A DNA stretch of 64,000 nucleotides from a phage. The notes under the pieces were generated by a model. It saw nothing but the letters and a program-made list of their open reading frames with translations. It had not been told where the DNA came from and made no database searches. The stretch lies in the NCBI GenBank assembly GCA_012343875.1, contig GCA_012343875.1_3924.1; one strand, given 5' to 3'. How positions within the stretch are numbered: position 1 is the stretch's first letter; every line of letters begins with the position of its first letter. Both the position numbers and the translations under genes were made by a program. Positions 9,902-49,970 of this stretch are shown piece after piece.

Positions 9902-12268
9902 TTAATCGTAAACTGTTGTACCTTCTGGAACACATTTTACATCAAAGCCTAAGAACTTACTCACTTCGATGGGTGACACTTTATTCCAATCTAAATGAGA
10001 AAGCAAGAAGTTTTCTTGTTTTCTTTTTGAAAGGTAGTTTGTCACCTTAATGACCATGCGGTCACCAGCTTTCTTAATTTTCTTGTACAGTTTTGTATCA
10101 TTGTCAAGGCATTCTTTCAAAGTTTGCAATCTACTAATAGTGTAAGTGTATGCAAACGGTGCGGCAACGTATTGGATTTTACCAAACATAGCCTCTACAG
10201 CCTCTTCATTACCTTCTAGGAAGATAGTTTTGCTAGTATCTCGTGAATAGCAATAGCCACGAGAAATCTTCCTGTTATTGAATGTAAAGTTTCTGGCAAT
10301 AATCCAACTGCTTGTAAGGTCAAGAACACCATTCATGTAGATGCGTGTCATATACCTGTTATGATTAATCCAATGAACATCAGTTAAGCTGTCGTTCAAG
10401 AGTTTCTCATCTACTTCAATCCAGTCTTCTGGTATCTTTTTCCAATTTGCTTTTCGGAAAACATAGACTGTCTTACCTGTAACATTAGCAACTGACTTAG
10501 CTACATCTTCTGGAGATGAGCAAAAACATTCACCATCAACTGTGTCACCGACTGCCTTAATGTAAAGCTGAGGTTCTTCAATTGTATCAAAGTCCTCTGA
10601 AACCTCTTTATAGGAAGCTACACCTTCTGCTGGAACAGCTTTCCAGAGTTTTACAACACCCCTTACAGCTTCTTTACGCTGGTAATGGTGTTCCTTATCA
10701 GACATCTTCACAATCTTTAACAAGCTTTTATCAAGTTTGTGCAGATTGATTAAGTCATCTAGCTCTTTCTCTGTAGAGAATACAAAGACAATACCATTGT
10801 ATCTGTGAAACAGATTTGACTCACTGGCGTAGTCTCGACATGCACCACGCAAAATTTGATTGCGTCCTACAGTCTTCTCAGTACCGTTTTTATTGCGACG
10901 GTCATTAATCACGAACAAAAACTGTTCAATTTGGCTTTTACGCATTGCACCAAAGATATTGAACATACTTGCCTCTTGAGTGTAGGAAAGTGCTGTTGCA
11001 CGAATCTTACTCTCTAAAGAGTTGAACTTGACATAAGCAACTGGGTCATAAAGATAATCTACTTTAGGGATATTGTTCCCGTTCCTATCAACCTTAATAT
11101 TGCCTTTACCGTCACGTTCATAAATGACTGAGCCGTCTTCTGCGTAGATAATTCCACGACGAATGTTTAACAATTCTTCTTCCAGAGAATCAAGCTTAAC
11201 GCCTCCCCACTCTAGCTTTGGACACACAGCATTAAACATCTCTCGTGAGTTCAAACGTAACTCTGCATAAGCCTGTGCAGCATCCATGAGTGTAGGTTGG
11301 CTATTAACTTTCTTGATAACATCCTTTGTAATTGCTTCAGTTATCTTTTTGGTAGCCTCGATGATAACATTTTTTGTCGTATCATTCATCTGCAATGCTT
11401 CACGAGAAGCTGCTATAGCAACTGAACCAATAGGCATGTAGATGTTTACAAGGTCTACGCTCCTACGGAAAAACTCTGGCAAGACTTTGAAGAAATCATC
11501 ACCAAGTAATGCTTCCATGTTCACTGGATAGGCAATATTACCCATCACCACATTAAACTCTGTCCTGTTACCACTAGAACGCCAGCTTTGCTTATGAATC
11601 ATGGCATCATAAACACCTTCTTCACGGGCAATGACGTTCATATCTGCTAATACATCGTCGTACTCAATATTACTTTCTGGTTTTACAGTGAAGTATGAGT
11701 ACACATTTCCAGCTTCTTCAAAGAACTTTGAGATACGGTGGTCAGCAACTGCCACACGTACAGCTAAACCATTTGGTTCTTTTGTTGGGTTAGTGGTCAG
11801 ATTAGTTACTTGAGGGATACCATTCTCAAGATAAACAGAGTACTTATTAACAACACCACCAACATAGCTAGATACTGTGAATGACTGAGCAATTGCAAAT
11901 GGGGATTTTGAGCCGATACCCATTGCACCAATGTAGTCATTAGAGTCATTCTTCGTAGAAGCCCCGTAGTTTAGGTACAAAGTCATAACTTTATCATGAG
12001 TCAATCCAGTTCCAAAATCACGAACTTCAAAGTAAGGCTCAAAACGAGTAGGTAAATGCACATGGAACGGGATGTTCTCTTTTCCAGCTTCTTTCTGAGC
12101 ATCTACTGCGTTACATGACAGTTCACGAATCACTGCCCTTTCTTTAAAGGTATATACACCAGAACTCAAAAGGCTGAACATCTCAGGTGTCATTGTAATC
12201 TGTGCTTGAGACGTCTCTAAAGAAGTTGAACTCTTAATCACTTCTGCGTGGTCATTTACCATGCGCAT
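9902..12268 (-). CDS. rIIA: rIIA-like protein (GHKL/Bergerat-fold ATPase N-terminal domain)
   Basis: AVIRELSCNAVDAQ and GAMGIGSKSPFA match the histidine-kinase-like ATPase motifs of T4 rIIA as I recall them. Confidence 0.7.
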   Translation of the reverse strand: MRMVNDHAEVIKSSTSLETSQAQITMTPEMFSLLSSGVYTFKERAVIRELSCNAVDAQKEAGKENIPFHVHLPTRFEPYFEVRDFGTGLTHDKVMTLYLNYGASTKNDSNDYIGAMGIGSKSPFAIAQSFTVSSYVGGVVNKYSVYLENGIPQVTNLTTNPTKEPNGLAVRVAVADHRISKFFEEAGNVYSYFTVKPESNIEYDDVLADMNVIAREEGVYDAMIHKQSWRSSGNRTEFNVVMGNIAYPVNMEALLGDDFFKVLPEFFRRSVDLVNIYMPIGSVAIAASREALQMNDTTKNVIIEATKKITEAITKDVIKKVNSQPTLMDAAQAYAELRLNSREMFNAVCPKLEWGGVKLDSLEEELLNIRRGIIYAEDGSVIYERDGKGNIKVDRNGNNIPKVDYLYDPVAYVKFNSLESKIRATALSYTQEASMFNIFGAMRKSQIEQFLFVINDRRNKNGTEKTVGRNQILRGACRDYASESNLFHRYNGIVFVFSTEKELDDLINLHKLDKSLLKIVKMSDKEHHYQRKEAVRGVVKLWKAVPAEGVASYKEVSEDFDTIEEPQLYIKAVGDTVDGECFCSSPEDVAKSVANVTGKTVYVFRKANWKKIPEDWIEVDEKLLNDSLTDVHWINHNRYMTRIYMNGVLDLTSSWIIARNFTFNNRKISRGYCYSRDTSKTIFLEGNEEAVEAMFGKIQYVAAPFAYTYTISRLQTLKECLDNDTKLYKKIKKAGDRMVIKVTNYLSKRKQENFLLSHLDWNKVSPIEVSKFLGFDVKCVPEGTTVYD

Positions 12269-12296
12269 AATACTTTCCTCTTAGTTTACTGTTAAA

Positions 12297-12473
12297 TTAC
12301 TTATTAAACATTTTACCAGAACCACCACACATAGGGCAACAACCTGCTCTTGTATACCCTTCTCCATTACAGTAGTCACACTTCTTGTGTTCTGCAAAGT
12401 ACTTACAAAGAAGGTAAACAAGTACTGCTACACTACCAAGTGACAGTAAAATTTCTACCCAATATGCTTGCAT
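12297..12473 (-). CDS. small membrane Cys-rich protein (58 aa), not in ORF track
   Basis: ATG at 12473-12471 with GAGGTG RBS; product MQAYWVEILLSLGSVAVLVYLLCKYFAEHKKCDYCNGEGYTRAGCCPMCGGSGKMFNK (TM helix + CxxC..CCPMCGG). Confidence 0.35.
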   Translation of the reverse strand: MQAYWVEILLSLGSVAVLVYLLCKYFAEHKKCDYCNGEGYTRAGCCPMCGGSGKMFNK

Positions 12474-12790
12474 GACTCACCTCTCATGTTTTTGTAAAGG
12501 ATAAAGCTTCTGTCATGGACGATACTTGTAGATACTGCAAAGTTACTTTCAAGCATCTGTTTGTTTGGATTGTAGAAGCTTTCTTTAAACTCGTCAAGTG
12601 CAAATTGGTGATTGTCTGGAAGACCTTTTACACACACCTTTATTGTGATTGCTGCTGCAATCTTCCCAGTCAGTTCTTCTTTAGCTGCTACTAAGATTTT
12701 GTTGAGGAACTTATGACCATTTTCAGGCTTCTTGATGTTCTCCCAACGCTCTTCTAAGACAATGTTGATGTTCATCTCTTTGATTTTCAT
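12455..12790 (-). CDS. hypothetical protein (111 aa)
   Basis: Co-directional ORF directly downstream of the promoter-hairpin-RBS element at 12806-12860. Confidence 0.4.
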   Translation of the reverse strand: MKIKEMNINIVLEERWENIKKPENGHKFLNKILVAAKEELTGKIAAAITIKVCVKGLPDNHQFALDEFKESFYNPNKQMLESNFAVSTSIVHDRSFILYKNMRGESCKHIG

Positions 12791-42885: not shown

Positions 42886-42925
42886 ACAAAAAAGGCTCCT
42901 TTTTACGGGAGCCTTAAAATTTTAT
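42886..42925. terminator. bidirectional intrinsic terminator between convergent blocks
   Basis: AAGGCTCC-tttttacg-GGAGCCTT hairpin flanked by A-run upstream and T-rich run downstream. Confidence 0.6.
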
Positions 42926-43293
42926 TTTTCAGTATTCTTTGTGTTCTTTTCAGTAATAGCTTGCAAGGCTGATACTGATTGGGCCAGATTGTTCACACTG
43001 TCAGAGAATTTATCAAGAGTTTTGGTAAGTTTCGCATTCTCACCCTTAACATTCTCTAACTGGACTTTCTGGTTCTCCATACCTAGCTGAATCAGTCTCA
43101 TGTCAGACTGTAAATCACGAATAGCTGAATAGTTACTTTTGGAATAATTATCTAGCTGCTGTAACTTTGTTGTGACAGACACTTCTTGCTTACCACTTGA
43201 AACTTGCATAGTGGTATACATCCCGATAACACTAAAAATACCAACTACAATTGCACCAATATTATTTTTAAAAGCTTCCTCTAGCCACTTCAT
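42922..43293 (-). CDS. membrane-anchored coiled-coil protein (123 aa), possible lysis-associated
   Basis: Single TM IGAIVVGIFSVIGMY followed by a helical region. Confidence 0.35.
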   Translation of the reverse strand: MKWLEEAFKNNIGAIVVGIFSVIGMYTTMQVSSGKQEVSVTTKLQQLDNYSKSNYSAIRDLQSDMRLIQLGMENQKVQLENVKGENAKLTKTLDKFSDSVNNLAQSVSALQAITEKNTKNTEK

Positions 43294-43488
43294 TTATTTC
43301 TCCCCCTTAAAAGCTTTTTCTAAGTTATCTACGAACTCATCATCAATAGGTGTGTCTGTTTTACTCGCAAGGTATCTTGCAAGCTTAAAGAACACTTTCT
43401 CAATCATGTATTCACTCAGAAGGGATAAAATGAGTTTCCAGAAGAAGCTACCTAGATTTTTTAGAAGAATTGCTAGGATTGTAGGCAT
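43294..43488 (-). CDS. small protein (64 aa), possible membrane/holin-like
   Basis: Hydrophobic N-terminus; downstream of tail fibre genes. Confidence 0.3.
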   Translation of the reverse strand: MPTILAILLKNLGSFFWKLILSLLSEYMIEKVFFKLARYLASKTDTPIDDEFVDNLEKAFKGEK

Positions 43489-43567: not shown

Positions 43568-46117
43568 TTAAGCAGTTCTTACCCAAGCCATTAACTTATA
43601 GAACTGGTTAGTAACACTAAATGCTGAACCAGAACCAGTACCACCTGTGTTACCACTAACTGTGTGGCTGTGAGCACCAATACCAACAGTGTGGCTGTGG
43701 TTACCTGTTGTATTCGTTACACCAGACCAGTTTCTTGATGCGTTGAAGTTGACAGGGATACCATTAGTAAAGTTGTTACCAGTATACCCTTTAGAACCTG
43801 CCTGACTACCGAGGTAGAATGCACCACTTGCTGTGTAGAAGCTACTAGCGTCACTTCTGAAGTAACCAAATGAACCAGTAATCTCCATAGTACCTCTGTT
43901 GTGGTTGTGGTTACCAGTTGTGCTAGAAGTCTTAGTACCATAGTCAAATGATGAAGTAGTAGCAGAGAAGCTGTGCGTGTGTGAAGGTAAGTTACCAACA
44001 GACAACGTTACAGAGTCTGAACCACCAGTTGTAGCAACATCTGAACCGTTTGCTGCTGCAATTCTAATAGTTCTACCAACACCATTATTCAGGTACGTCC
44101 AAGTTAACCCAGGAAGTGCTGTGTTTGGGTTGACATTACTGTTAAACCACGTCACAATACCTACTGGATAGATTTTATTCAGGTCTGTAGAGTCACTAAT
44201 TGCTTCTGCAATCTTCTGGTCAGTTTCTGCTTTAGTGTATGCACCAATATCTGAAGGGGTTGGTTTTTGCAAACTTGTGTAGTATTTTGCAATTGTACCC
44301 TTCACAATACCTTGTGGAGCATCATCAAATGTCTGTGGGACTTCAAACAACTGTACACTTGCATTACTAGAAGACTGAACCCTTGTCGTTGTGCTGTTTT
44401 GATACGTACCAGCAAGATAGTAAATATCATAGGTGTCTCCAGAAGTATTCACATAACCAATATCCCTGATAATGGTGTTCTCTGATGTTCTCCAAGCAAC
44501 AACATTTAAGCCCTTTGGATTGTTATTTGAAGTTCGCAGAACAATTTCACATTTACCTGCTTGGTTTGGTGTATTAATATTAAAACCTGACCCACCAAAT
44601 ACCTCAATAACAGCAGTGGATGCTGATTGTGGCATCACAACAGTGGCAATTTTAGCCCACTTATCAGTGTTTCCCACATTGAAGCTAGTGCTTCTGATTC
44701 TTAGGTATCTACTATCACTAGCACTTTGCGTAAAGTATCTAGCATCTAAGTTAGAGAAATCTGAAGGTTGAACTTGTCCAGCAATAGTCAATGTTTTGTT
44801 AATGTATGATGTTGTATTCCCGAGAACCAATTGGGTTCCAGAATAACTGTTATTTAGGGTTACATCATTATTATCTGCCCCACCAACACCTACCCACCAC
44901 CTTGACACATTAGCAGTGTCCACACCACGGATATACAATGGTCTGTTCTGAGTAGAGTTTTTCACAATTAGGGCTTCATTATCCGTAACAACTTTCTGTA
45001 CACCATTAAAAGTATTTTGTGCATTAGTTCTTGCAATCGTACTTAATGTTGCTGCCGGAATATATCTAGAGTCAATATTAGTCCAATCCGAAGGTTGAAC
45101 TTGACCAGTGATTCTGAAGTTCTGGTTGACTGAGATATAGCCATTATCAAGCCTGATATTTGAACCGTGTACATAGTTGTGTAGCAGCACAGAGGCTGTG
45201 TTATCCCCGTTCCCTACATACCACCTGTTAGTGTTCTGAGAGTCAACACCCTGAATGAATAGTGAGCTAGCTGTTGCATTTTTCAACCTTAAAGCAGCAC
45301 TGTCACTAATGATGGTTAGATTTCTACTAAACGTGTTAGTGCCCGTGAAATTATTATTAGCAGCTAACTGTGCAAATCTCTGATTAGCAACTGTCTGAGT
45401 GAAGTATCTAGCATCTAAGTTAGAGAAATCTGAAGGTTGAACTTGACCAGTGATTGCTAAAGACTTATTAACAGAGACATTACTTGCAACAGTCAAGGCT
45501 GAGTTGTATTTGTTATTGTACAGCTTTACTTCATCAGAGCCATTACTACCAATACCAACCCACCATCTAGCCGAACCATCTAGGTTTACACCTTCGATGT
45601 ATTGTGCATTATTTGCATTTTGGTTTCTAAGGCGAAGTAAGTTAGCATCACCTTGAATATTTTGAGTTCCAGAGAATGTGTTTGTGATAGCAAGTCTTGC
45701 ATATCTTGCGTCATTCTCTTCATTAGTTCTCATACCAAGCTCATTAGGACTTGGCTTATTCAGAGTATGATAAACAGTTGCTGACCTTGAAGCATCTGCA
45801 ATAGTTAGTTTAAGACCATTTGCATTAAGTTTAAAAGTCTTTAAAACATCCCCAATAGTAATTTCAGAAGAACCTGTAGGGTCAAATACTGCCTTACCAC
45901 CATAAAGTAACTTGACAATACCTAAATCCCCAGTCATATTACTTCCAGCAATCTGAACAAACCTTTCTAGTTTGAAGGAAGCTAAGAAGTCTTGATAGGT
46001 CATTCTGCGGTCTTCATCACCCAACATTTCAGGTCTTTTCTTAACTCTGATGTGCAATAGGTCTTCTGAACGAATTGTGTCGATTGAGTTTAATTGACTC
46101 AATTTGTAATCTGCCAT
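43568..46117 (-). CDS. long tail fibre protein with internal repeats and His-rich C-terminal tip
   Basis: Three copies of the ITGQVQPSDFSNLDARYFTQ block; C-terminal HTHSFS / GNHNHN / GNHSHTVGIGAHSHTV HxH repeats. Confidence 0.7.
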   Translation of the reverse strand: MADYKLSQLNSIDTIRSEDLLHIRVKKRPEMLGDEDRRMTYQDFLASFKLERFVQIAGSNMTGDLGIVKLLYGGKAVFDPTGSSEITIGDVLKTFKLNANGLKLTIADASRSATVYHTLNKPSPNELGMRTNEENDARYARLAITNTFSGTQNIQGDANLLRLRNQNANNAQYIEGVNLDGSARWWVGIGSNGSDEVKLYNNKYNSALTVASNVSVNKSLAITGQVQPSDFSNLDARYFTQTVANQRFAQLAANNNFTGTNTFSRNLTIISDSAALRLKNATASSLFIQGVDSQNTNRWYVGNGDNTASVLLHNYVHGSNIRLDNGYISVNQNFRITGQVQPSDWTNIDSRYIPAATLSTIARTNAQNTFNGVQKVVTDNEALIVKNSTQNRPLYIRGVDTANVSRWWVGVGGADNNDVTLNNSYSGTQLVLGNTTSYINKTLTIAGQVQPSDFSNLDARYFTQSASDSRYLRIRSTSFNVGNTDKWAKIATVVMPQSASTAVIEVFGGSGFNINTPNQAGKCEIVLRTSNNNPKGLNVVAWRTSENTIIRDIGYVNTSGDTYDIYYLAGTYQNSTTTRVQSSSNASVQLFEVPQTFDDAPQGIVKGTIAKYYTSLQKPTPSDIGAYTKAETDQKIAEAISDSTDLNKIYPVGIVTWFNSNVNPNTALPGLTWTYLNNGVGRTIRIAAANGSDVATTGGSDSVTLSVGNLPSHTHSFSATTSSFDYGTKTSSTTGNHNHNRGTMEITGSFGYFRSDASSFYTASGAFYLGSQAGSKGYTGNNFTNGIPVNFNASRNWSGVTNTTGNHSHTVGIGAHSHTVSGNTGGTGSGSAFSVTNQFYKLMAWVRTA

Positions 46118-46163
46118 TATGAATTTTCCTCTTAAAAGGGGCTATAAAGCCCCTGTAAAGAAA
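46118..46163 (-). terminator. hairpin GGGGCT-UUAU-AGCCCC + U-tract between the two fibre genes
   Basis: Minus strand: GGGGCTTTATAGCCCC TTTTAAG. Confidence 0.45.
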
Positions 46164-47339
46164 TTAAGCTGTTCTCTGCCACACATACACTACAAAAGAT
46201 GGCTGCTCAACACTGAAAGCTTGACCACCACCAACAGAACCAGATGTCCCTGAGTGTGTATGCTCAGAGCTAGAAACAGTAACAGTGCCTGTATGACTGT
46301 GCGAACCAATATTAACAGTGTGGCTGTGAGCACCAATTGCGACAGTATGGCTATGAGCACCAGATGATGCAGTTGTACCTGAGAAGCTATGGGTGTGAGC
46401 ACCAGCTAAATCAGTATACATAGCATTACCAACACCAGCATCAGCAGATGCAGTAATAGCGTTTGTGCCACCCCTATCATTACCCCTCATAGGAACTCTA
46501 TGGTTGTGGTTACCAGCATTACTTGTTGTGCCACTAAACGTGTGAGTGTGAGCACCAGCACTATTAGTCGTTTTTGTACCGTAATCAAAAGTTGATGTAC
46601 TTTTTGAACCATAATCAAAACTAGAGATAGATACACTTGCAGAGTGTGTATGACCACCACCTGTTAGATAGATAGAGTGAGTATGTGCTGGTAAATTATT
46701 ATTTGTTAATGCTACAGTCTGAGAACCAAACGTTGAACCAACAGGTCTGGAATCTGTATCATAACCAACTAGTGCTCTACCTTTAGAAACTAACTCCCAA
46801 GTACCTCCACAAAGCAAGTAAGTGGATGGGTTAGCAGAGTTAACAGATAGATGAATAGTACCCACTGGATATGATGCTTGGATAGCTTTGTATAGATTAT
46901 TCACTGCTCTCGCTGTAGCATACTTATCAGCATCTTCATTGTACAGATTGGATGTTGTCCAGTTCTGAACATTACTTAAACCGACCTGTGCTTTCGTTGT
47001 GTTATGTGGGTTACTTTTGTCGTCAATATGTTGCTGAATTAAGTTATTCACTTCCTCTGACGACATAATTTGTAGATTTGCTCTTGCCTCAGCAACATTT
47101 ACAATGTCTGACAAGTTATTAGCTGCAACTAATTGAAGAGAGTTAATAACATTATCAAGACCTACTTGCGATTTCGTTACACCATGAGGGTTATTCCTCA
47201 AAGATGCGTGAGGTGCTAACAACTGTTCAAGCGTACATCTTTTATCCTCAACACCTTGCTTAAGATGGAAGATATCACTCAAATCAATTGGTAAGGCCGC
47301 TTGTGGCAAGGCACTAATTTGAATTTCACCTACTGCCAT
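46164..47339 (-). CDS. tail fibre protein with His-rich HxH repeats
   Basis: GGGHTHSASV, GAHTHTFSGT, GNHNHRV, GAHSHTVAIGAHSHTVNIGSHSHTG; C-terminus similar to the 849-aa fibre (..W.RTA). Confidence 0.65.
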   Translation of the reverse strand: MAVGEIQISALPQAALPIDLSDIFHLKQGVEDKRCTLEQLLAPHASLRNNPHGVTKSQVGLDNVINSLQLVAANNLSDIVNVAEARANLQIMSSEEVNNLIQQHIDDKSNPHNTTKAQVGLSNVQNWTTSNLYNEDADKYATARAVNNLYKAIQASYPVGTIHLSVNSANPSTYLLCGGTWELVSKGRALVGYDTDSRPVGSTFGSQTVALTNNNLPAHTHSIYLTGGGHTHSASVSISSFDYGSKSTSTFDYGTKTTNSAGAHTHTFSGTTSNAGNHNHRVPMRGNDRGGTNAITASADAGVGNAMYTDLAGAHTHSFSGTTASSGAHSHTVAIGAHSHTVNIGSHSHTGTVTVSSSEHTHSGTSGSVGGGQAFSVEQPSFVVYVWQRTA

Positions 47340-47341
47340 TA

Positions 47342-47644
47342 TTAAGCTCCTACATATTCATATGTGTAAAGGTTTCTTGTACTTGTTGATGCAGTCCCTG
47401 TCTCAGACTTAATGAGACTCCAACCATTAGCCACTAAATCTGGTTGCTCAGTTGCATATGAACGAACTTCACCAACAGTGCCATTTACTTTATTCAGCAG
47501 GTAGTTGATAATATAGTTGAACCACTGTCTACCCATAGGTTCACCCTTTAAAAGACCTGTCTCTTGAACTTCCGGTGGTGGTAAAACTTTTAACTGATTA
47601 CCATCAGTATCTACTTCGTTTGTAGACCAATTTAGAACTGCCAT
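47342..47644 (-). CDS. hypothetical tail-module protein (100 aa)
   Basis: Position between baseplate and fibre genes. Confidence 0.35.
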
Positions 47645-48498
47645 TAAGAATTTCCTTCTTGTTGTGATTTATCTTTTCTGCCTTTGACAATTTGCGCAAC
47701 CTCAGCCATGATTCCGTATGCACCACCTGCAATAGCTTCTTTACCAACGATGAAATAACCACTATTATTAGACCTATCTACAGTCATATAGTCATCGCTC
47801 TGCGAGTTTACTGTTCTGTCAACCTTAAAGTAACCATCAATAACACCAGCATCTGCAAGGCTACCTACTAAGTTGGACTCCAGAGAGCCACCAGTATTAT
47901 TTGTGACAAGACCTCTGTTAGCATCAGTTACAAACCAGTTCTCTTTATCATCAACAATAGCAAGTGATGAATCAGCAACCTCTACAGGTGTCCAAGCAGT
48001 CCCATTTAAAGTAACATCTCTTAAGATAACAGCGGAGCCAGTAGTTGTTGCAGACATCTTTGACAGTGTATATGCAGCATCTAGAACGCTTTTTCTAGTG
48101 TTGATACGGATAACGATACCACCAGTCTTAGGAGTAATATGCTCAAAAATCTGAGAGAAAGTTGCACCATATAGTGTCATAATTGCTTTTTGCAAGAATG
48201 TTGGGGTGGTGTCAGAGCGTCTTAGGAAGATTTGGATATAAAGCATAGCTCTATATGTTTCATCATCTGCACCTAAAGGTCTAGGAACTTTAATCAGTGA
48301 GCCAATATTATCAAGTTGTTGGCCTACTGACGTCCTGATATTTCTCTCTGTGTGCATCTGCCAGCAAACATCCTCTAATGTTTGTAGCTCATCAGTGATT
48401 GCTTTCAAGATACTTGTATAGATAAATTTATCTTTAAACTGTGTTACAGTCCTTTCATCAAGTGTTTTATAATAAACACTATCAATCTTTTCAAACAT
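47644..48498 (-). CDS. baseplate protein (P2 gpI / Mu gp48-like by position)
   Basis: Gene order downstream of a J-like baseplate gene; stop/start overlap. Confidence 0.4.
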
Positions 48499-48500
48499 TA

Positions 48501-49969
48501 TTACTCCTTAGTGATGGTATACTGGCTACTTTCCCAAACAGTATATTGGTCACCGTCAACAGTAATTCTTGCTGTAGTATATTGTCCGTCACTAGGTGGA
48601 ACTGATTGGCTGTTTGATAATGCTACTTTCACCTCATTAATCTCAATACCTTTAATTACATCATAGATATATCCGTAGATTCTGTTAGGGATAACGTCAT
48701 TACCAACCTTAAGAGTTCTTCCGTAGGCATTAATACCTTGTACAATACTGTCTCTGATATCCTCTTCAGGGATTGTCAAGCTTTCTTCGTCATATAATGA
48801 GTAAGATACTTTAACAAATGCGTATTTTGGTGTTGGTCTGCTAAAGTAAATATTATGTGCTAAACCACCTAAATCATGGGCTGTACCAAAAATTGAGCCG
48901 TAAGCTCTAATACCAGCAGGTTTTGTATCCCAGATTGCTTGAGCAACATTATCATTTTGACCACCGACTACGACAATCTTAAAAGATTTTGGTGGAAGAC
49001 CTTCTGAGTTCGTCTCTTCAGTATCATTTTCAACACCTGAAGCATCTGAGACCCCTTGAACTCTTTTAACAGCAGCCACAATTGCATCCAAAGTCCCTAC
49101 ACCAGTAACTGCTAAGGATTCTAAATATCTCTGCCTAAGTTCTGTGTCAGTTTCTTCGTTTCTACCAGTTGTTAAGTCATACCTGTTATAGATGCTGTCA
49201 AGGCCATCAACAGTGGTTTCAATCTCAATAAGAGTCCCAGCTAAAGCAGGAATAGCACCAACCTCTTCAGCTACTACATCTGAGATAGTTGTAATCTTTG
49301 TAAATGTCAGAAACGTTGTCGCAGTAACAACCATAGGGTTTGTTCTTGCAATAATATCACCCTCATCTTTATAGACTCTTAATGAGGCTCCATCATTGAT
49401 AACTTCTGCTTTTGCTACAATACCACCATTAATAGCCTCTGCTAATTTAGTTAGTAGTGTGGTAATTGTGTCTGATGAGGTTGGTTTATATGAGAAAATA
49501 ACGTTATCAATAATAATAACATAATCTGCATCAGTTCGTAAAGAGTTAACTTCAAGAACAGCTTCAACACAATATGATGGGGTAAGGGTAATATTGTTAA
49601 CTGGATAAAAGATATTTCCAGCAGTACTTCTCAATCTTGTTGTTGAAGAGATGGTAGCACCAGTTGTTCCAGTGAACTCAACCTGACCCCTTGTTGCCTG
49701 AGCAACATATCTGTATACAGCATTCAAAGCTGTGATATCATCAAGGTTAAATCCTTCAGCCTTGTCAATTGTCCCGCCGTCATAGATTTCTGATAGAATC
49801 TCATGTGTATCTGCTAAAGACCTTGCAATTGAAGCTAGGAAGAGACCTAATTGACTATCTTCAGAAACGTCAAGGTTTGGTGAAATATCTCTAAGAAGTC
49901 TTGATTTGATATTATCAAAAATTTCCTGATATCTTAGAGTTTGTAATCCTGTTGTAGTTAATCCTGCCA

Positions 49970-49970
<1 letters not shown>
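48501..49970 (-). CDS. baseplate J-like protein
   Basis: 489 aa; position after the gpW-like gene in a Mu/P2-type baseplate cluster. Confidence 0.45.

Follow-up and report, generated by a model that had tools for sequence, protein, structure and literature searches.

Short and long tail fibre genes with gp37-type tips in a Felixounavirus of the wV8 lineage

Two tail fibre proteins with similar tips have been described in several phages of the genus Felixounavirus. The genome paper of phage Felix O1 noted in 2010 that the C-termini of gp76 and gp77 resemble T4 gp37, and gp77 was detected in virions (PMC3185647). For phage VpaE1, the gp37 adhesin region was reported in 2015 to be common to both fibres, with an LPS (lipopolysaccharide) core carbohydrate as the receptor (PMC4690856). 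The cryo-electron microscopy (cryo-EM) structure of phage Bas63 (JohannRWettstein), published in 2025, includes a 430-Å short fibre made of gp26 and attached to wedge 2A, and a 630-Å long fibre made of gp27 and attached to the gp25 'LTF platform'; the tips of both fibres are gp37-like and consist of a collar, a needle with His-x-His (HxH) motifs, and a head (PMC12609058). Here we analyze the short tail fibre (STF) and long tail fibre (LTF) genes encoded in a 64,000-nucleotide (nt) stretch of phage DNA (GenBank assembly GCA_012343875.1, contig GCA_012343875.1_3924.1; hereafter, the window), for which an earlier note, made from the sequence alone, had pointed out two paralogous fibres with HxH-containing tips.

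Both fibres and their gp37-like tips are already known, having been annotated, noted in 2010 and 2015, and visualized by cryo-EM in 2025, and are ordinary virion parts. What the present analysis adds is mildly new and descriptive: the configuration of nine and four HxH motifs in the STF and LTF, respectively, the long HxH-free head cassette of the LTF and its distribution among phages, and the shuffling of the LTF modules.

The two fibre genes and their tips

Two adjacent minus-strand open reading frames (ORFs), separated by 46 nt, coincide exactly with the two fibre genes of the earlier note (Table 1). In a megablast search, 95% of the 4.4-kb fibre region was found to be 97.8% identical at the nt level to Escherichia phage wV8 and several Escherichia coli O157:H7 typing phages; by this sequence comparison, the source phage is a Felixounavirus of the wV8/E. 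coli O157:H7 typing-phage lineage. The orthologues in the wV8 record (NC_012749), gp82 and gp83, are labelled tail fibre proteins. The STF gene product matches the tail fiber family PHROG 2097 (E = 1.8e-139), and the LTF gene product matches the tail fiber family PHROG 4277 (1356 bits), its best database protein being 94% identical. The gene order, namely, wedge 2, wedge 1, LTF platform, STF, LTF, is identical to that of bas63_0023 to bas63_0027 in Bas63 (MZ501086), and the encoded proteins are 61 to 95% identical in amino acid (aa) sequence to Bas63 gp23 to gp27 (Table 1). This identical synteny, combined with the level of sequence identity, identifies the two genes in the window as the STF and LTF of a Felixounavirus. 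The annotation of these genes is inconsistent across the genus: the short protein appears as 'tail fiber protein GP37' in the wV8 and Felix O1 records, and the 382-aa product of bas63_0026 (11500-12648 in MZ501086) is labelled 'long tail fiber protein', yet is the short fibre according to cryo-EM.

The tips of both proteins are related to the tip of T4 gp37 (PDB 2XGF). With E = 1.8e-26, residues 146-362 of the STF align with residues 18-227 (of 242) of 2XGF. Included in this match are the collar, the FDYGTK-containing ascending strand, the head, and the GxHxHTV repeats of the descending strand, and the HxH motifs of the STF come to lie in register with those of gp37. For the LTF, residues 707-828 align with residues 101-218 of 2XGF (phmmer, E = 5.8e-7), so that both fibres match 2XGF over the ascending and descending needle strands. 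A collar domain of the gp10/gp11/gp12 type, which characterizes a gp37-type tip, stands ahead of the needle: the STF matches the Pfam collar domain Gp10_C with 67.8 bits (cut-off 27), the gp10-like part being residues 154-276, and also matches the C-terminal domain of T4 gp10 (E~2e-6). The alignments with 2XGF, along with the collar, HxH needle, and head seen by cryo-EM on both fibres of Bas63 (PMC12609058), bear out the earlier proposal that the tips are T4-type HxH structures.

As the earlier note observed, both fibres end in HxH clusters, and all the strings it quoted (GAHSHTV, GNHNHR, HTHSFS) are present. The STF carries nine HxH motifs, at residues 219, 230, 264, and 278 and at 315, 329, 338, 347, and 360, which take up 18 of its 24 histidines; the LTF carries four, at 713, 737, 807, and 816, using eight of its 12 histidines. 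In both proteins, the motifs are split into two runs, 4+5 around a 34-residue HxH-free segment (281-314) in the STF and 2+2 around a 67-residue one (740-806) in the LTF. A compositional or low-complexity accident of Gly/Ser/Thr/His-rich tails, with no role in metal binding, could be considered given that the C-terminal regions are biased and that the HMMER bias terms for the 2XGF matches are high (23-31 bits). However, among 20,000 shuffles of each protein, none reached nine motifs for the STF (mean 1.4) and one reached four for the LTF (mean 0.16). Same-composition shuffles of the C-terminal region alone also yield only 1.3 (STF) and 0.26 (LTF) motifs compared with the observed nine and four. 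Moreover, the histidines are invariant or nearly so in 53 STF homologues while their neighbours vary: His219, 230, 232, 278, 280, 315, 317, 338, 340, 347, and 349 are all invariant or at least 90% conserved, and the number of HxH motifs per protein ranges from six to 13, with a mode of nine. The HxH histidines of the LTF tip are conserved in 46 homologues as well. Given, in addition, that the gp37 motifs with which they are in register are described as Fe-coordinating, the possibility that the clusters are accidental can virtually be dismissed.

The two tips are also homologous to each other. Both proteins end with AFSV, five to six residues, and W.RTA, in agreement with the shared extreme C-terminus described in the earlier note. 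In the STF, Y385, W387, and R389 are invariant across the 53 homologues, and in the LTF, W845 and R847 (W386 and R388 of the C-terminal fragment) show conservation of at least 90% among 46 relatives. Alignment of the C-termini, that is, LTF 623-849 with STF 136-391, reveals significant similarity (30% identity, E = 9e-18 in composition-corrected BLASTP), so that the two fibres are indeed paralogous in their tips.

The earlier note compared the tips with those of both the long and the short fibres of T4. The kinship with gp37 holds, but that with gp12 does not, as no detectable similarity was found: no chain of T4 gp12 is among the PDB matches at E<=1 for either the STF or the LTF. By sequence similarity, the 'short' fibre of Felixounaviruses is thus a protein with a gp37-type tip, not a gp12 orthologue. 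An alternative reading of the 391-aa protein is that it is a gp10-like baseplate component rather than a fibre, leaving host recognition to the 849-aa protein alone. Its sole Pfam match is indeed to Gp10_C ('Baseplate structural protein Gp10, C-terminal domain'), its proteomic coverage in Felix O1 virions was low (9%; PMC3185647), and the BASEL paper states that the role of short fibres had not been explored. However, the gp10-like part is confined to the collar, whereas the rest of the tip aligns with gp37, and the head between the HxH runs is hypervariable, like a receptor-binding site. Furthermore, the cryo-EM of Bas63 resolves gp26 as a fibre on wedge 2A (PMC12609058). We therefore consider a gp10-like component quite unlikely and continue to treat this protein as a fibre with a gp37-type tip.

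With respect to the fold, the beta-helical tip anticipated in the earlier note is not what this type of fibre forms; the tip is an intertwined six-stranded needle (PMC12609058). We predicted structures with AlphaFold2 (AF2) for monomers only. The STF model (mean predicted local distance difference test score, pLDDT, 66) shows helices at residues 66-106, a collar with pLDDT of about 85, a confident C-terminal strand, and a long hairpin (strands 222-238 and 349-365), whereas pLDDT is 35-60 for the needle and head, the head being poorly modelled. In the model of LTF residues 460-849 (pLDDT 62), a beta-sandwich and the collar are resolved, and the needle and head are below 50. A Foldseek search of the PDB with the STF monomer model did not retrieve 2XGF, returning only weak matches to the gp10 collar and spurious matches to pore-toxin hairpins. 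Because an intertwined trimer is not expected to fold as a monomer, the argument rests on the sequence evidence.

Taken together, it is highly probable that these are the fibre genes of a Felixounavirus, with gp37-type HxH tips, and that the proteins work as follows. Judging from the cryo-EM of Bas63 and the crystal structure of T4 gp37, the STF and the LTF would each be a homotrimer. We infer by analogy with Bas63 that the conserved N-terminal regions are baseplate-binding domains, the LTF docking on the 100-aa platform trimer, as the Bas63 LTF binds gp25, and the STF on wedge 2. From the collar, the three chains would extend outward as a needle, reverse direction in a small head, and return, producing a six-stranded needle, with the Y-x-W-x-R-T-A strand completing the tip in the collar. 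Each HxH motif, supplied by all three chains, would give rise to a single octahedral metal site of six histidines (Fe2+ in T4 gp37) stapling the needle, which predicts nine such sites in the STF (four ascending and five descending) and four in the LTF (2+2). The HxH-free hypervariable segments, STF 281-314 and LTF 740-806, would then be the receptor-binding heads. The receptor is most likely LPS, as in other members of the genus, and a putative dual receptor specificity of the STF and LTF, suggested in the earlier note, is plausible. Several points weigh against this scheme: the LTF collar scores 23.8 bits against Gp10_C, just under the curated cut-off of 27; the LTF head (67 aa) is twice as long as that of T4 and has no solved relative; and the receptor and the identity of the metal are assigned by analogy only.

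Cassettes of the long fibre and the predicted heads

The earlier note proposed a recent duplication or exchange as the origin of the related tips. Exchange is well supported by the sequence comparisons described below, in which the LTF appears as a mosaic of independently swapped cassettes; duplication is not. A recent tandem duplication in this lineage, yielding tips with an identical or almost identical receptor, would account for the adjacency of the genes on the same strand, for the homology of the tips, and for the AFSV...W.RTA ending that they have in common. However, the identity between the tips is only 30%, and the fibres of other phages or prophages are closer to each tip than its neighbour is. 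Over its whole length, the LTF tip shows 46-48% identity with tail proteins from Providencia, Mixta, and Photorhabdus prophages (E = 1e-50 to 1e-57), and for its head the identity to an E. coli prophage fibre is 76%; a different E. coli prophage fibre (P0101) matches the STF needle at 57% identity, and the STF of Erwinia phage phiEa21-4 matches the STF tip at 42%. In addition, the two genes are paired in Felix O1, Bas63, and wV8, and homologues of the STF reach into phages of Erwinia, Yersinia, Hafnia, and Pectobacterium, so the pair is old. A recent duplication is therefore very unlikely.

The LTF consists of a conserved N-terminus, three tandem repeats, a knob domain, and the tip (Table 1). 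Residues 1-139 are 92-100% identical in all 120 homologues. The three internal repeats of roughly 100 aa reported in the earlier note are real: measured fragment against fragment, as the self-BLAST of the whole protein gave only the trivial match, each is about 110 aa long, and the pairwise identity is 41-46% (E = 2e-20 to 5e-31). Each repeat closes with ITGQVQPSD(F/W)(S/T)N(L/I)D(A/S)RY, and the three together account for three matches to the Pfam family PF20744, gp37_trimer (266.5 bits, E = 9e-81, cut-off 21.7). Within the second repeat, R2, residues 275-344 match the T7 gp17 fibre (4A0T, 7BOZ; E~1e-6). The LTF differs from wV8 gp83 at 68 positions, about 60 of which are within R2 (253-335); R2 is only ~50% identical to that of wV8, whereas the remainder of the gene shows 95-100% identity, which looks like a clean cassette replacement. 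It is this R2 allele of the window that gives the match to the T7 gp17 fibre. By comparison, the STF differs from wV8 gp82 at three positions.

The knob domain that follows the repeats is predicted to be an all-beta structure (pLDDT 75-90 at ~480-610 in the AF2 monomer), and its model matches a domain of WceF from Pantoea (6TGF; Foldseek, E = 4e-7) as well as domains of Acinetobacter phage tailspikes. Homologous segments are found in gp37-type distal long-fibre subunits of T-even phages, in the ST64B fibre, and in side fibres of E. coli prophages. In Bas63, Felix O1, and the class of ~790-aa LTFs, the knob is replaced by other sequence. This domain may be a second glycan-binding site.

Among the 120 homologues (P0241-P0360), the identity to the window is bimodal for each LTF segment (R1, R2, R3, mid domain, and tip), at either about 50% or about 95-100%, with replaced mid domains at 16-20%. 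The segments take on these states independently of one another, in varying combinations, while the N-terminus remains conserved. Such a pattern suggests that discrete alleles have been shuffled by recombination, as opposed to drifting gradually. Why the repeats vary was left open in the Bas63 paper (PMC12609058).

In the STF, variation is concentrated in the head. Among 22 Felixounavirus STFs, identity falls to 0.21-0.25 at residues 281-310 compared with 0.7-0.9 elsewhere, and the hypervariable segment 281-314 aligns with the head region of T4 gp37 between HxH 3 and 4. In the same set, the N-terminal region (1-135) is 0.66-0.99 identical per 10-residue block, and conservation of the N-terminus is 0.8-0.99. 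The shaft contains two copies of the motif NPHxxTKxQVGLxNVxN, at residues 49-66 (47142-47195) and 109-126 (46962-47015), which probably correspond to what was described in Bas63 as 'triple alpha helix and turn' elements. This motif drives many weak PHROG matches to unrelated tail fibre families.

The Felixounavirus LTF tip types have identical collars and proximal needles; their only difference is in the cassette lying between HxH 2 and the penultimate HxH. The Felix O1/Bas63 type has two more HxH motifs and a smaller head, and the wV8-type cassette, present in the window, is HxH-free. Only 12 phage records contain the head cassette (83 aa) at 100% identity, and the host of every one is O157:H7; among them is HY02, the LTF of which is only 79% identical overall. 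Identity is 84-87% in other phages of STEC (E. coli strains that produce Shiga toxin) and 55-77% in Felixounaviruses of E. coli, Shigella, and Citrobacter. In Salmonella phages, the cassette is absent, save for one partial match at the edge of a record (phage SP3_SHan-2021). Outside the genus, tail fibre genes of two 170-kb phages encode cassettes that are 90% (vB_EcoM-ZQ3, MW630116.1, 47684-47899) and 72% (PQ349265.1) identical at the aa level, which indicates cross-family exchange of the receptor-binding head; 170 kb, the genome size of vB_EcoM-ZQ3, is that of T-even phages. An E. coli prophage fibre (P0157) contains a cassette with 76% aa identity, and matches of ~75% nt identity are found in 15 of 5426 complete E. 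coli genomes, including O104:H4 and some STEC. Derivation of the cassette from O157:H7 prophages was considered and rejected, as none of the matching genomes listed is labelled O157.

From this distribution, the wV8-type LTF cassette (~737-806) might be a receptor-binding head that moves horizontally and specifies recognition of O157:H7 or of its LPS type. We hold this reading only tentatively and consider it rather doubtful; the association with the O157:H7 host is weakly supported because near-clonal typing phages make up most of the 12 identical records. As part of the highly probable scheme set out above for both fibres, the conserved HxH and collar sequences flanking the heads would act as homology arms for recombination, allowing head cassettes to be swapped between phages. 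The delimited head cassettes of the STF and LTF, together with their conserved flanks, could serve the retargeting of O157:H7 phages in engineering and diagnostics.

Gene neighbourhood

The fibre genes close the baseplate operon, and further baseplate genes lie upstream on the same strand, beyond wedge 2. The product of the ORF next to the STF gene is the orthologue of the protein named LTF platform protein gp025 in PDB 9NDY (chain S, 100 aa). The hairpin between the STF and LTF genes is annotated as a rho-independent terminator in the wV8 record and is followed by the Shine-Dalgarno sequence of the LTF gene, AAGAGGA; a consensus terminator scan did not call it at 46137-46154, because the T-tract is short. 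This hairpin could attenuate transcription of the LTF gene relative to that of the STF gene.

A tail fibre chaperone of the gp38 type was sought beside the fibre genes, and none was recognised; for the two small ORFs that directly follow the LTF gene, the only matches are to PHROGs of unknown function. By eye, each of the predicted products has a hydrophobic N-terminal stretch, and both ORFs are retained in wV8, Felix O1, and Bas63; their position would suit a role in fibre assembly or lysis. Beyond the bidirectional terminator that lies downstream of the fibre genes, where the minus-strand structural operon converges with a plus-strand operon, are the genes for thymidylate synthase and dihydrofolate reductase (td/frd). 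The GC skew of the window changes sign at ~34 kb, coincident with the switch of the long ORFs from the minus to the plus strand, and at ~43 kb, at the point of this convergence. Felix O1-type genomes carry about 22 tRNA genes; ARAGORN found none in the 64-kb window.

Table 1. Features of the fibre region, with positions in the window
Feature	Positions	Strand	Size and basis
Baseplate wedge 2	48501-49970	-	489 aa; 95% identical to Bas63 gp23; Pfam Baseplate_J
Baseplate wedge 1	47644-48498	-	284 aa; 83% identical to Bas63 gp24
LTF platform (docking trimer)	47342-47644	-	100 aa; orthologue of Bas63 gp25, 86% identical
STF gene	46164-47339	-	391 aa; orthologue of wV8 gp82, Felix O1 gp76, Bas63 gp26 (76% identical)
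STF 1-135, predicted baseplate-binding region and helical shaft	46935-47339	-	conservation; AF2; Bas63
STF 136-391, gp37-type tip	46167-46934	-	collar ~146-218; C-terminal strand YVWQRTA back to collar
STF needle	within 46167-46934	-	ascending HxH 219, 230, 264, 278; head ~281-314; five descending HxH (315-362)
STF 281-314, HxH-free hypervariable segment, predicted receptor-binding head	46398-46499	-	variability; gp37 alignment
STF/LTF intergenic hairpin	46137-46154	-	GC-rich AGGGGC-tttata-GCCCCT (six pairs), then TTT; between STF stop (46164) and LTF start (46117)
LTF gene	43568-46117	-	849 aa; orthologue of wV8 gp83, Felix O1 gp77, Bas63 gp27 (61-70% identical)
LTF 1-139, conserved N-terminal region, predicted baseplate attachment	45701-46117	-	homologue identity
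LTF 140-472, tandem repeats R1-R3	44702-45700	-	Pfam PF20744; pairwise identity
LTF repeat R1, 140-249	45371-45700	-	
LTF repeat R2, 250-357	45047-45370	-	
LTF repeat R3, 358-472	44702-45046	-	
LTF 473-620, exchangeable beta-sandwich knob domain	44258-44701	-	148 aa; AF2, Foldseek, sequence
LTF 621-849, gp37-type tip with short needle	43571-44257	-	collar ~640-712; C-terminal strand LMAWVRTA
LTF needle	within 43571-44257	-	HxH 713 and 737 ascending; head cassette; HxH 807 and 816 descending
LTF 740-806, HxH-free distal cassette, predicted receptor-binding head	43700-43900	-	tip-type alignment
Small ORF directly 3' of LTF gene	43294-43488	-	64 aa; PHROG 402, unknown function
Second small ORF	42922-43293	-	123 aa; PHROG 4038, unknown function
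Bidirectional terminator	42892-42915		perfect hairpin AAGGCTCC...GGAGCCTT, T-runs on both strands

Comparison with known fibres

The closest relatives, wV8 and the O157 typing phages 1, 8, 11, 12, and 15, possess the same two genes in the same operon, with identical LTF collars, needles, and heads. Bas63 is more distant: its STF is 76% identical to that in the window, and for its LTF the identity is 61% over residues 1-472 and 70% over residues 610-849. Both Bas63 fibres share the C-terminal strands of the STF and LTF described here. The number of HxH motifs, and hence the needle length, varies within the genus Felixounavirus: the STF of Bas63 has seven (two up, five down) compared with nine (four up, five down) in the window and also in Felix O1 (4+5), whereas the LTFs of Bas63 and Felix O1 have six compared with four in the window. 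The LTF head cassette in the window is HxH-free and longer than that of Bas63, and in the Bas63 LTF a shorter, unrelated segment stands in place of the 148-aa beta-sandwich at residues 473-620.

The tip of T4 gp37 (2XGF) has seven HxH motifs (3+4, from the alignment), compared with 4+5 in the STF and 2+2 in the LTF. In T4, this tip sits on a kinked fibre built of four proteins. Unlike in T4, the gp37-type tips encoded in the window sit on straight fibres, each made of a single protein. The resemblance to the collar domains of T4 gp10 and gp11 (2FKK, 1EL6; PF21939) is more limited: the gp10 matches stop at STF residue 240, extending little beyond the collar, and the gp11 match spans only 66 aligned residues. 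In T7 gp17, the PF20744 domain is a single, sub-terminal one, whereas the LTF contains three tandem copies of it as shaft modules. The fibres of enterobacterial prophages, among them the lambdoid side tail fibres of E. coli, have similar tips (Gp10_C/tail-collar) but differ in the N-terminal attachment and shaft modules (PF12571, PF08400, PF03406).

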